Assembly: GCA_963734545.1 (NCBI GenBank)
Contig: CAVTHO010000005.1
Span: 416,001-480,000 of the forward strand
Length of the DNA: 64,000 nt
Direction: 5' to 3'
Source: an uncultured Spirochaetota bacterium
GTDB taxonomy: Bacteria; Spirochaetota; Spirochaetia; SZUA-6; Fen-1364
Shown here in pieces: positions 50,857-54,811 of this stretch. Position numbers and translations under genes: made by a program. A model generated the notes under the pieces. The model saw only the letters and a program-made list of their open reading frames with translations. It ran no database searches and was not told where the DNA came from. Within the stretch, counting starts at the first letter, position 1, and every line of letters starts with the position of its first letter.

Positions 50857-52884
50857 ATGGTATCCGTCTACACGGTCGGAGAGATCTGCAAGAAGTGCTA
50901 CTCCTGCGTGCGGTCCTGCCCGACCAAGGCCCTGCTCGTGCGCGGCGGGCAGGCCGACATCATCGAGGACTTCTGCATCTCCTGCGGCTATTGCGTCAAC
51001 GTCTGCTCGCAGGGCGCGAAGCGCGTCGTCTCCTCGCTTCCCGCCGTGCGGGAGATCCTGGCGGGGCCGGGAGCCAAGTACGCGCTCCTGGCGCCCTCGT
51101 TTCCCGCGGCCTTCCTCGACCTTCCCCCGGAGAGGCTCGTCGGCGCCCTGCAGGCGGCGGGCTTCGACGGCGTGTACGAGGTGGCCTTCGGCGCCGACCT
51201 CGTGGCGCAGGAGTACGCCCGTCGTTTTCACGAGCTTCAGGAGCGCAGCTCGGAGGATTTCCTGATCTCCACGCCGTGCCCCGCCGTGGTGCAGTACGTG
51301 GAAAAGGTGCTGCCGGAGCTTGCGCCGCACCTCGCCGGCATCGTCTCGCCCATGGAAGCCACGGCGCGGGTCGTGCGGCAGAAGCTGTGCGGGCGGGGGG
51401 AATCGCGGGAGGCCCGGCTGGTGTTCATAGGCCCGTGCGTGGCGAAGAAGGTCGAGGCCTGGCGTTCAGGTGAAGTGGATGCCGTCCTCACGTTTTCCGA
51501 GCTCGCGGAGCTCTTCGCAGATGCCGGCATCGATCCCCCGTCGGCGCGTCCCGCGGATTTCCGCCCTCCCCACGCCAACCTCGGCCGGATCTACCCGGTG
51601 ACCGGCGGGCTCCTGAAGGCAGCGGCCATCGACGCGGACATCCTGGAAAGCCCCGTCTACGTCGTGGAGGGAGCCGAGCGGGTCATGGAGATCCTTCAGG
51701 TCCTCTCCCAGAGGGTCAGGACCGGGCAGCGGGTGAACTACCGCCTGTTCGATCTCCTGTTCTGCGAAGGGTGCATCGGCGGCCCCGTGATGGTGAACGA
51801 TCTCACATTCTTCGAGCGCAAGAAGTACGTGGTGCGCTACATGGAAGACCGCCCGATCGTGCGGGACGTGGAGGAATGGGCGGAGCAGACATCGCGACTA
51901 CCTCGCGGTGGACCTCTCCGACGGCATTCCACCCGGTGATCCGCGAGGAGGTGGCCGCGCCCGAGGAGGAAATCCGCAGGATCCTCGCCCTGACGGGCAA
52001 GAACTCCCCTTCGGATGAGCTGAACTGCGGCGCCTGCGGATACGCCTCCTGTCGGGACAAGGCCCTGGCGGTTTTCCGCGGAAAGGCCGAGGTGGAGATG
52101 TGCCTTCCCTACCTGATCGCGCGGGTGGAGAAGGCGATGAATGACCTCACGGACAACCAGGCGCGGCTGATCCAGGCGGAGAAGCTCGCCTCCATGGGTC
52201 AGATGGCGGCGGGTATCGCCCACGAGATCAACAATCCGCTGGGCGTCGTGCTCATGTACTCCCACCTGCTGAAGGACGAGCTGGCGGATGCCTCCCGGCC
52301 GCAGGAGGACGTGGAGCGGATCATCGCGGAGGCGGAGCGCACGCGCGGCATCGTGCGCGGCATCCTGAACTTCGCCCGTGAGGAGAAGGTGGACCGCGCG
52401 CCCACCGACATCAACGCGCTGTTGAGGAACTCGGCGGAAGGGATCGTGGCAACTTCACCAGAGGGGAAATTCCGTGTAGAGTTCCCTCTTGACGCCTCCC
52501 TTGGCCCCCAGCATGGTGGACGGCGGCCAGCTCCGCCAGGTCTTCGACAATCTGCTGAAGAACGCGGTGGAGGCCATGCCGGACGGCGGGGCGATCCGCG
52601 TGGCCACGGAGGACGGGGAGGGAGAGTTCACCGTGACGGTTTCCGACACGGGCGCCGGGATCCCCGAGGAGAACCTGCCGAAGATGTTCACGCCCTTTTT
52701 CACGACGAAGAAGGTCGGCAAGGGGACGGGGCTCGGGCTCTCGGTCTGCTACGGCATCGTGAAAATGCACGGGGGAACCATCCAGGCGGCGAACGTGCCG
52801 GGCGGTGGTGCATGCTTCACCGTGCGCATCACGGCACTCGCATCCGCTGCCGCGCCGCTGTCGGGTCAGCGTCGGCAGGTCTAA
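50857..52884 (+). CDS. Putative sensory [FeFe]-hydrogenase fused to a histidine kinase (frameshifts near 51900 and 52500)
   Basis: 2x[4Fe-4S]; variant H-cluster motifs [23 protein letters not shown]; FeS domain [37 protein letters not shown]. Confidence 0.85.
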
Positions 52885-52895
52885 GGAGGAAGGCT

Positions 52896-53303
52896 TTGGC
52901 TCGCATACTTATCGTTGACGACGACACGGATCTCCTCGAGGGACAGAGGCTGTTCCTGGAGAAGAACGGATACACGATCGAGACCGCGCTCACCATCGAA
53001 GAGGGCCTGGAAAAGGCGCAGGAGGCCGCCGCCCGACATGATCATTGCCGACCTCATGATGGAGCATTACGATTCGGGGTTCGTGTTCTGCAAGAAGGTG
53101 CGGGAGCTGCCCGGGCTGCAGAAGGTGCCCATCATCATGCAGACCGCAGCGCCCCGCAAGGTCGGGCTTCACCTTCGAGACCGGCGCCGCCCCCGGGCGG
53201 GAATGGATGAAGGTGGACGAGGTCCTCACCAAGCCGGTGCCGCTGGAGCACCTCCTGGGCAAGATCGAGCAGTACCTGTCCGGCAAGGCGCGCGCATGCC
53301 TGA
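52896..53303 (+). CDS. Single-domain response regulator (frameshifted, 3' end uncertain)
   Basis: AAGGAGG SD, TTG start, ILIVDDD, IIADLMM, IIMQTA, LTKP across frames. Confidence 0.72.
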
Positions 53304-54811
53304 CCGGGAGCCCGCTGCCCCGCGCCGCCCCGCAGGCGCTCCGATCCCGGCGCCCGGCAGGCGGGGATCGCGAAGCCGATCCGCGTGATCGTCATCGACG
53401 ACGAGGAAGGCATGCGGGAAGGGATGCGGCGGGTGCTCGAGCGGCGGGGCTTTCTCGTGCGGACGGCGCAGGGACGGGGAGACCGCCCTGCGGCTGCTGG
53501 AGGAGGCCCCTCCGACGTCGCCCTGGTGGACCTGAAGATGCCCGGCATCGACGGCTTCAAGGTCACCGAGCACATCACGCGCCGCTTCGCGCGGGCGCAC
53601 CGTGGTGGTGATCGTCTCCGCCCTGGCCACCGTGGAGGCGGCCGTGGAGGTGACGCAGCACGGCGCGTTCGATTTCCTGGTCAAGCCGTTCACCCCCGAG
53701 GACCTCCTGCAGGTGGTCAACCGGGCCGTGCAGCAGTCGCGTCTTCTGCGGGAGCGCGAGAGGTACCTCTCCGAGCTGGCCGGCGAGCGCAACCTCTCCC
53801 ACCAGATGATCTCCTCGATGCACGAGGGGGTGGTCGTGCTCAACATCCGCCGCGAGCCGGTGCTGATGAACCCCCGCGCGGAGCACTTCCTGGGCAAACG
53901 CTTCCGGGACGGCATGACGCTGCCCGAGCTGTTTCCCGACCTCGATGCGGCCGCGGCCATCGAGGCAGTCATCGACTCGGCGCCCGCCCGGCCCGAGTGC
54001 AGGGTGGTGCAGCTCGCCACCGGGGACGGCAGGCTGCAGGTGAGCATCTCGCCGCTCCTGCGCGACGCGGAGGCCGGCGGCGCCATCGTCATCCTGTCCG
54101 ACATCACCGAGAGCTGGAAGGCGGAGCAGGACAAGAACCGCTTCGTCTCCATGGTGGCCCACGAGCTGAAGAGCCCCCTGTCCGCCATCATCAACTACAT
54201 CAACGTCATCCTCACCGGAATGTTCGACGACAACGCGCCGAAGGTCCACGAGATGCTGGAGCGCTGCAAGGTACGGGGGGAGGCCCTGCTGGACCTCGTG
54301 CGGGACCTGCTGTACATCAACAGCCGCGAGGTGGGCAAGGTGGAGCGCTCCCTGGAGAGCCTCGACCTGAAGGCGGTCATTGCCGCGCAGCTGGAGTTCT
54401 TCCACGTGCAGGCGGACAAGCGCAGGATCAGTCACGGCGTTCGAAGCGCCGCTGGCCGCGTACCCGGTCAAGGCGGACCGCGGTGACCTGGACAGGATCT
54501 TCATGAATCTCATCTCCAACGCGATCAAGTACAACCGGGACAAGGGACGCCTCACCGTCTGCATCAAGGACGCCGGCGCCGCGTGGGAGGTCGCTGTCAC
54601 CGACACGGGCATCGGGATGAGCGACGCGGAGAAAGCAAGTCTCTTCCAGGAGTTCTACCGGGTGAAAAGCCACAAGACATCTGGTATCGCGGGAACCGGT
54701 CTGGGCCTGGCCACGGTAAAGCGGGTCCTGGGCGAATACAATGGAAAAGTCCTCGTCCAGACAAAGCCGGACGCGGGTTCCACTTTCACCGTCGTCTTTC
54801 CCAAGGAGTGA
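53296..54811 (+). CDS. Hybrid receiver-(PAS)-histidine kinase (about 3 frameshifts)
   Basis: VIDDEE, VDLKMPG, LVKPF; SMHEGVVVL..MNPRAE; AHELKSPL; NLISNAIKY, DTGIG, GTGLGL. Confidence 0.8.

Follow-up and report, generated by a model that had tools for sequence, protein, structure and literature searches.

In the HoxBC/HoxJ/HoxA system, a low-activity [NiFe] regulatory hydrogenase (HoxBC) reports H2 to a kinase (HoxJ) that, together with the regulator HoxA, controls hydrogenase genes. A system proposed to work in the same way is encoded in an uncultured wetland spirochaete, in the 64,000-nucleotide stretch of DNA analyzed here (the window). At 50857-54811 on the + strand, behind the hydrogenase genes hydCBA, lie three genes that encode a sensor histidine kinase with a hydrogenase-like input, a lone receiver, and a hybrid kinase; the coordinates originally predicted fit these three genes. 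Unlike the spirochaete system, the Hox system has an unrelated metal site and fold, its sensor and kinase are separate proteins, and its DNA-binding regulator is known. Closer in kind are two characterized putative sensory [FeFe]-hydrogenases, TmHydS of Thermotoga maritima (group C, M2f) and TamHydS of Thermoanaerobacter mathranii (group D, M2e) (PMC8163306, PMC10055695); the first of these sources also mentions HoxJ. What speaks for signalling by TmHydS is a PAS domain whose partner is unknown (PMC10055695), and a signalling role of [FeFe] 'sensory' hydrogenases is still putative.

Proteins of the window's kind are already in print. HydDB lists a group C1 as 'histidine kinase-linked (putative)' with an undetermined role (PMC5037454). 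The window sensor resembles this group as a putative H2 sensor acting via a histidine kinase, but C1 membership is set by sequence-similarity clusters. Vallitalea has separate genes for its C1 enzyme and the kinase (PMC6163223). Group C has also been defined by a PAS domain fused to the hydrogenase domain (PMC11216029, PMC10055695), and the window sensor has no PAS match. In the sub-type V BfuABC clusters described in a 2024 paper (PMC11406978; Hydrogenedentota, Caldithrix abyssi), the gene for 'BfuT', which carries a histidine-kinase domain, lies downstream of bfuA. The window sensor is comparable: it too is hydrogenase-like, bears a histidine-kinase domain, and has its gene directly 3' of a bifurcating hydrogenase gene, and two Hydrogenedentota loci (L041, L064) have the same six-gene order as the window at 44-46% identity. 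However, PMC11406978 calls BfuT a subunit and places it in HydDB class C3. The C1 label given in the original prediction is therefore doubtful, because the same architecture and gene order have been published as C3, and the C1 proteins of that paper are hard to match to H-cluster motifs. In the main text of PMC11406978, the term 'response regulator' does not occur, and the receiver and the second kinase are not treated. The window encodes a member of a widespread, catalogued putative sensor family (HydDB group C, kinase-bearing 'BfuT'). The original prediction of an H2-sensing kinase feeding a relay is partly supported: it is right in outline, doubtful in its C1 label, and unproven for H2.

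We lean towards the view that the first of the three genes encodes a cytoplasmic sensor histidine kinase whose non-catalytic HydS-type input signals H2 or electron pressure through the relay. The domain order of the protein was read from Pfam matches on its frame pieces in the window:

50857..52884, + strand: sensor histidine kinase gene (Pfam on frame pieces; intact orthologues in the sister genomes G014 and G002)
50872-51006, + strand: Fer4 (4Fe-4S dicluster domain) of the sensor
51079-51786, + strand: Fe_hyd_lg_C, the H-cluster domain (H-domain, PF02906) of the sensor (E 5e-47)
52020-52109, + strand: iron-sulfur (FeS) domain PF04060 of the sensor, with the motif Cx2Cx4Cx16C
52194-52385, + strand: HisKA of the sensor (E 1e-14)
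52522-52830, + strand: HATPase_c of the sensor (E 2e-30)

In the intact G002 orthologue, Pfam places the Fer4 domain at residues 6-54, the H-domain at 75-310, the FeS domain at 388-417, HisKA at 446-509, and HATPase_c at 555-658. The spacing from FeS to HisKA is just 28 residues, leaving no room for a PAS domain, and Pfam scans gave no PAS match. The claim that ferredoxin, H-cluster, and FeS domains are joined to HisKA and HATPase without a PAS domain was thus borne out.

The motifs quoted in support of a sensory role are legible in the translations: STPCP where HydA has TSCCP, GPCVAKK for MPCTAKK, and LLFCEGC for IMACPGGC. As had been claimed, all four cluster Cys and the Lys are retained. 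In an alignment of 20 orthologues that are 60-92% identical to the first sequence, the H-cluster ligands C141, C194, C303, and C306 and the residue K197 are invariant in 20 of 20. The same holds for Pro140, which occupies the C299 position, and for Gly192, which occupies that of M353, and these two substitutions are present in the window and in all eight orthologous open reading frames (ORFs) that passed a filter (8 of 12 loci examined; L005, L006, L011, and L012 lie outside that set). The four Cys of C390-x2-C393-x4-C398-x16-C415 are invariant as well. With the four Cys and the Lys kept, Cys299 lost, Met353 changed to Gly, and the C-terminal Cx2Cx4Cx16C present, the input half is of the putative sensory HydS type. 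PMC8163306 supplies the TmHydS substitution pattern and reports the same four-Cys spacing in the stretch separating the H-domain from the PAS domain in M2f enzymes, where it was deemed likely to be involved in signalling. The kinase half carries the H-box His and the N, G1, F, and G2 boxes of a HisKA-class histidine kinase, and these are invariant across the 20 orthologues (His455, N564, D596/G598/G600, F610, and G622-G626).

An AlphaFold model of the sensor (monomeric; mean predicted local distance difference test score [pLDDT] 69.6, predicted template modelling score 0.50, residues 1-57 and 436-463 below pLDDT 50) contains one continuous helix, 416-456, that runs from just past C415 to beyond the phospho-acceptor His455; the helix was used as secondary-structure support only. 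A sequence search found no sensory-type enzyme among solved structures. The best solved relative of the kinase is ZraS (9jfj, 1.7e-31), and the best match of the H-domain is T. maritima HydA.

The sensor shares with TmHydS and TamHydS an N-terminal two-cluster domain, the lack of the C299 relay, the C-terminal Cx2Cx4Cx16C, and a bifurcating hydrogenase beside it, and Gly at the M353 position is common to the window sensor and TmHydS. The three differ in what comes after the FeS domain. In TmHydS it is a terminal PAS domain, and in TamHydS there is nothing more, whereas the window sensor continues into a complete kinase after 28 residues. How common is this arrangement? A word-indexed protein search returned 7540 matches at E <=1e-10 among 8000 scored; all 120 matches listed carry PF02906, PF04060, HisKA, and HATPase_c, and their database names include the JGI label 'NtrC family sensor kinase' and NCBI labels of Spirochaetia metagenome-assembled genomes (MAGs). 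With residues 1-430 as query, a full HMMER scan yielded 4800 cluster representatives at E <=1e-3 and 762 at <=1e-30. The top 150 representatives were labelled by our own hidden Markov models, Pfam scans of 30, and BLAST of the tails. They comprise proteins with PAS only (58), a kinase directly after FeS (36), a HisKA_3 kinase directly after FeS (1), PAS or GAF and then a kinase (11), sigma-54 AAA+/helix-turn-helix (HTH) directly (9), PAS and then sigma-54 (6), GGDEF (4), or a methyl-accepting chemotaxis protein (MCP) domain (3), along with proteins that end after FeS (6), fragments (10), and others (6).

In a quick maximum-likelihood tree (140 rows, 411 columns, HydA as outgroup), a PAS-only clade (62 rows; Shimodaira-Hasegawa-like approximate likelihood ratio test [SH-aLRT] 98) split from a transmitter-fused clade (71 rows, SH-aLRT 96). 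A 43-row subclade of the latter (SH-aLRT 95) holds 31 of the 35 direct-kinase rows, including the window orthologue and its paralogue. The tree contained no named reference such as TmHydS itself, and the PAS-only clade, sister to the transmitter-fused clade, is taken to be TmHydS-like. Gly stands at the M353 position in 123 of 126 sensor-type rows, Leu at the M497 position in 31 of 36 direct-kinase rows, and the four C-terminal FeS Cys are retained in all 126 sensor rows. At the C299 position, Pro is the commonest residue among the direct-kinase rows (14 of 36). The substitutions are therefore of the sensory type, as predicted, and by its sequence the window's sensor is a typical family member. 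In other organisms, the module made of Fer4, H-domain, and FeS also occurs fused without PAS to other outputs (P0140, P0146, P0155, P0172, P0190; P0125, P0130, P0206; P0143, P0244), namely sigma-54 AAA+/HTH_8 (one-component regulators), GGDEF or GGDEF plus HD, and MCP, and a HisKA_3 output is fused to it directly as well. Direct fusion to varied outputs is expected of a general sensor module.

In the window, the sensor gene spans three reading frames. Are the frame breaks real? In a comparison with G014 and G002, which are sister genomes of the same genus, 1-base insertions private to the window show up in the sensor gene near 51889, 51921, and 52514, and a dozen or so more in the receiver and hybrid kinase genes; none of these lies in a homopolymer. 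The sensor orthologue is a single ORF in both sisters (674 aa in G014, with 96% protein identity; 672 aa in G002, with 92%). Logan contigs of four wetland metagenome runs (X1-X4), which are informative only where they cover the window, were also compared. Contigs of X1, X2, and X3 (~98% identical) omit one base at 51890 and one at 51918, and other contig omissions match the insertions at 52851, 52874, 53031, 53163, 53295, 53374, 53592, and 54432, with one or two runs for each. For X4, the contig that spans 51890 was not listed with the omission, and the 52514 insertion was not among the contig rows shown. Private 1-base insertions break hydB (47235-49086) and the downstream major facilitator superfamily (MFS) gene too, the latter within the broken region 52896-56063 that also takes in the receiver and hybrid kinase genes. 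The assembly is error-prone throughout; over the 4 kb aligned, there is about 1 indel for every 250-300 nt. Between the window's own genome (G000) and G014, at dS ~0.31, the ratio of nonsynonymous to synonymous substitution rates (dN/dS) is 0.046 in hydB, 0.074 in hydA, and 0.087 in the sensor gene (whose dS is 0.32), and whole-sensor-gene values are 0.08-0.10. Because the sisters and the near-identical wetland contigs are without the breaks and dN/dS is low (0.09 for the sensor), the frame breaks in the window are assembly errors, and the true sensor gene is one ORF of ~672 aa. The direct fusion survives the correction: the corrected sequence links the H-domain to the kinase, with none of the split that had been named beforehand as evidence to the contrary.

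The same data bear on a very different explanation, in which the three genes are decaying pseudogenes with real frameshifts in a lineage that lost its maturases. The ~15 frame breaks in 4 kb of the window and the loss of the maturase genes hydGFE would suit it, but we regard it as highly improbable. Nearly every break is a 1-base insertion private to the window. G014 and G002 do not have these breaks, nor, in the cases shown, do the contigs of as many as three wetland runs, and the breaks also affect the unrelated neighbours hydB and the MFS gene. Furthermore, there are no premature stops once the shifts are set aside, and dN/dS is 0.05-0.09 at dS ~0.31.

The sensor gene is part of a conserved cassette. 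The other genes of the operon in the window are as follows:

46780..47265, + strand: hydC, a NuoE-like 2Fe-2S thioredoxin-like subunit, 93% identical to G002 HydC
47235..49086, + strand: hydB, a NuoF-like FMN/NADH subunit, with a single frame break near 48040
49103..50827, + strand: hydA, the catalytic [FeFe]-hydrogenase subunit, 574 aa, intact, with the motifs TSCCP, MPCTAKK, and MACPGGC
52896..53302 (end approximate), + strand: single-domain receiver of ~134 aa, broken near 53031, near 53167, and near 53295 just before the stop
53320..54811 (start not fixed), + strand: hybrid receiver-PAS-HisKA-HATPase kinase, broken near 53469, 53510, 53592, and 54432

The receiver is 134 aa in the intact orthologues of G014 and G002. 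Pfam scans found receiver pieces in the second gene of the trio and receiver, PAS_4, HisKA, and HATPase_c domains in the third, bearing out the predicted lone receiver and receiver-PAS-kinase without a DNA-binding domain. A scan of species-representative genomes gave at least 582 relatives of the sensor among 600 candidate stretches. Neighbours were counted in the best 80 loci (full-length matches, 41-100% identity) by tblastn with G002 proteins, each denominator being the loci that hold enough flank. HydA is encoded directly upstream of the sensor in 55 of 68 loci, and hydC-hydB-hydA in 46 of 62. A receiver gene lies <=750 nt downstream in 73 of 77 loci, and a receiver followed by a kinase in 55 of 60. 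The complete order hydC-hydB-hydA-sensor-receiver-hybrid kinase is kept in 36 of the 46 loci with both flanks; among the 10 exceptions, some have hydCBA downstream or the receiver ahead of the sensor. The MAGs that hold the 80 loci carry the names Spirochaetia/Rectinemataceae, Ignavibacteria, Planctomycetota, Acidobacteriota, KSB1, Myxococcota, Hydrogenedentota, Bacteroidales, Nitrospiraceae, Chloroflexia, Clostridia, and others; the check on neighbourhood conservation that had been suggested came out positive across many phyla.

Conservation of the cassette also bears on whether it signals at all. The sensor could instead be a structural, low-activity hydrogenase subunit with a vestigial kinase half, in a cassette without a signalling role. 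TmHydS and TamHydS retain low H2 turnover (PMC8163306), as this explanation would have it. It is nevertheless improbable, since the kinase boxes are invariant over 20 orthologues, 55 of 60 loci retain both the receiver and the second kinase, and whole-gene dN/dS is 0.08-0.10.

The design also occurs in duplicate. In the genus, a second copy lies beside another hydCBA (locus L103 of genome G015), and the window's own genome has a second cassette at G000:C5:632935-643000 (L017), whose sensor is a 46% identical paralogue. In this second cassette (L017/L103), an extra H-domain-like gene, a small HATPase-like gene, hydC, a 140-aa gene, a long hydB (1031 aa), and hydA are followed by a sensor kinase (44% identical over the first 430 residues), two lone receivers, and a receiver-PAS-kinase. 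In 14 loci, mostly of Ignavibacteria/Bacteroidota (for example, L048, L057, L075, L087, and L096), a second hydA follows and the relay sits between two hydCBA operons, and in the two of these that were scanned, the gene ahead of the second hydC encodes a third single-domain receiver.

How might such a sensor work? The domain order, the conserved ligands, the intact kinase boxes, the conserved cassette, and the purifying selection are observed, whereas the mechanism that follows, with its signal, its sense of switching, its partners in phosphotransfer, and its output, is our proposal. The input module would consist of two N-terminal [4Fe-4S] clusters, an H-cluster site without a proton relay, and the C-terminal four-Cys cluster. 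H2, or the electron pressure of the hydrogenase and the ferredoxin pool, would set the reduction state of this FeS chain. The last cluster would head one long helix that runs into the dimerization and histidine phosphotransfer (DHp) helix with the phospho-acceptor His, and its redox state may thus be passed on directly, without PAS, to switch autophosphorylation. The phosphate would then go to the adjacent single-domain receiver, and the second-tier kinase (receiver-PAS-kinase) would be controlled via its own receiver. The final target would be encoded outside the operon here; in some other phyla, it is probably the adjacent NtrC-type sigma-54 activator of hydCBA. The Pfam scans of the three proteins found no histidine phosphotransfer (HPt) family, and the second kinase is a full kinase; the HPt or Spo0B-like transfer domain of a multi-step His-Asp-His-Asp phosphorelay was thus not found. 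The first partner is suggested by P0135, in which a direct-kinase sensor and a receiver are naturally fused. Its receiver matches the lone receiver at 36% over 132 residues (90 bits) and the receiver of the hybrid kinase at 28% (36 bits). Because it is closer to the former, it supports the adjacent lone receiver as the putative first partner of the sensor.

Several points weigh against the proposed mechanism. The partner assignment draws on gene order and one fusion, the operon is without an output domain, and the literature searched held no biochemical test of a kinase-fused member. The AlphaFold model is of moderate quality and monomeric. The remaining points concern the maturases HydG, HydF, and HydE. 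In the window's own genome assembly (89% complete), HydG and HydE had no match, and HydF matched at the GTPase level only (82 bits versus a cut-off of 325). In G002, hydG-hydF-hydE lie together, all above cut-offs (locus L102, about 6782-12260). When 18 kb of this locus was compared with the own genome, both flanks were found contiguous on contig C8, outside the window, with ~15 bp (665380-665395) in place of the ~5.5 kb of hydGFE. Four relatives that keep the cassette (G016, G024, G027, and G038; 95-99% complete) are likewise without HydG, HydF, and HydE, and among 36 cassette-bearing genomes from other phyla, 16 of unstated completeness gave no HydG. In this organism, the canonical [2Fe] subcluster may never be made. 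With hydGFE missing from the own genome, H2 is less confidently the signal here, and H2 sensing in this genome is unproven.

Other counts describe the wider picture. G014 (74% complete) has kept only ~390 nt of the hydE 3' end, and the left flank of the locus was not found there. Of 18 genomes with a close sensor orthologue, 8 have HydG above cut-off, and the 10 in which it was not found include six that are 91-99% complete. In the other phyla, 20 of the 36 genomes with the cassette have HydG; in at least 7 of them, it lies inside the fetched cassette locus (8 kb flanks), a point in favour of the proposed mechanism. PMC11216029 describes the same maturase puzzle in archaea and suggests an alternative pathway; our literature search on bacteria lacking the maturases found nothing specific.

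The maturase gap is the main ground for a competing explanation, namely that the protein is a redox sensor only. The H-domain would hold [4Fe-4S] clusters but no [2Fe] subsite and would bind no H2, and the protein would report the reduction of ferredoxin or of the HydABC FeS chain, perhaps docked as an extra 'T' subunit. It would fit the clean absence of hydGFE from the syntenic locus, with no match elsewhere in the assembly, the mere ~390-nt hydE remnant in G014, the four near-complete relatives that keep the cassette without all three maturases, and the invariance of every FeS ligand. In PMC11406978, too, the protein counts as subunit T within the BfuABC cluster. However, the H-cluster Cys and Lys that serve solely the [2Fe] site are conserved, even in maturase-less genomes, and hydA, which depends on the same cofactor, is under equally strong purifying selection (dN/dS 0.074) in the two maturase-less genomes G000 and G014. 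The constraint on hydA suggests that something probably still matures H-clusters or that the unassembled 11% of the genome holds the genes. We therefore hold the redox-only sensor to be possible but doubtful, and prefer the sensor that signals H2 or electron pressure. A further, rather unlikely account is that the lineage deleted hydGFE yet keeps, under strong purifying selection, two bifurcating hydrogenase operons, each with an H-cluster-type sensor kinase, either through a HydEFG-independent way of making or acquiring [2Fe], like the archaea described in 2024, or because the modules work without [2Fe], with a receiver cascade that acts on the enzyme and not on DNA.

Two features upstream of hydC bear on transcription of the operon:

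46648..46711, + strand: two overlapping sigma-70-like promoter matches, each with 9/12 hexamer letters, the sole ones in 46300-55300
46710..46727, + strand: perfect Rex-type palindrome TTGTGAA-N4-TTCACAA, 52 nt 5' of the hydC start at 46780 and overlapping the second -10 hexamer

Taken alone, the promoter matches are weak (2 found versus 1.0 expected in 46300-55300). The intergenic gaps in the operon are 11-29 nt, with 29 nt from hydA to the sensor and 11 nt from the sensor to the receiver. A terminator scan of the + strand found none from hydA to the end of the hybrid kinase and a single site at 48175 in hydB, a weak six-pair match. Co-transcription with hydCBA, as originally predicted, fits the short gaps, the promoter-like sites solely 5' of hydC, the lack of a terminator-like site, and the conserved gene order. 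The Rex-type palindrome, identified with what we take to be the Rex consensus, is the sole match in 64 kb at <=2 mismatches, with 0.04 expected. It stands at the same place in G014, G002, and one further spirochaete locus. Across all loci, such a site (<=2 mismatches) precedes hydC in 4 of 67 cases, all spirochaetes, and a Rex N-domain gene is present in the own genome. In spirochaetes, transcription of the whole operon thus appears to be under predicted Rex (NADH/NAD+) control.

Other phyla appear to be wired differently. In 5 loci (including those of a KSB1 MAG, an Acidobacteriota MAG, and two Planctomycetota MAGs), an NtrC-type regulator made of a receiver, a sigma-54 AAA+ domain, and HTH_8 is encoded directly upstream of hydC. 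Sigma-54 promoter-like sites (>=10/12 consensus letters) precede hydC in 7 of 67 cases versus 14 of 1600 random windows. No sigma-54 promoter was found before hydC in the window, G014, G002, or G038. The stretch TGGGCACGTGCGTTTTT was considered as a sigma-54 promoter and rejected, as the -12 GC is missing. The window contains no sigma-54 activator gene, although the lineage has rpoN and ~17 sigma-54 activators elsewhere, and Pfam scans found no DNA-binding domain inside the operon in the window or in the relatives scanned. The predicted absence of a visible output holds for this operon but not for the 5 loci of other phyla in which the NtrC-type activator adjoins hydC. Transcriptional wiring thus varies by lineage, with NtrC/sigma-54 in some phyla versus a Rex site in spirochaetes, while the three-protein module is constant.

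The genes that flank the operon differ between relatives (HAMP-cyclase, MFS, Cache kinases, a GAF-SpoIIE protein). In the window, a broken HAMP plus class III nucleotide cyclase gene lies 5' of hydC at 44127-46478; it is intact in G002 (659 aa) and is not conserved beside the cassette in other families.

The window copy adds nothing in kind to the family, but it shows the cassette kept in a genome without known maturases. A sensor fused to its kinase offers a direct read-out, autophosphorylation in the presence and absence of H2, and its first partner is defined. In many phyla from anoxic habitats, the cassette accompanies the bifurcating hydrogenase, and its logic would therefore bear on how fermenters set H2 production.

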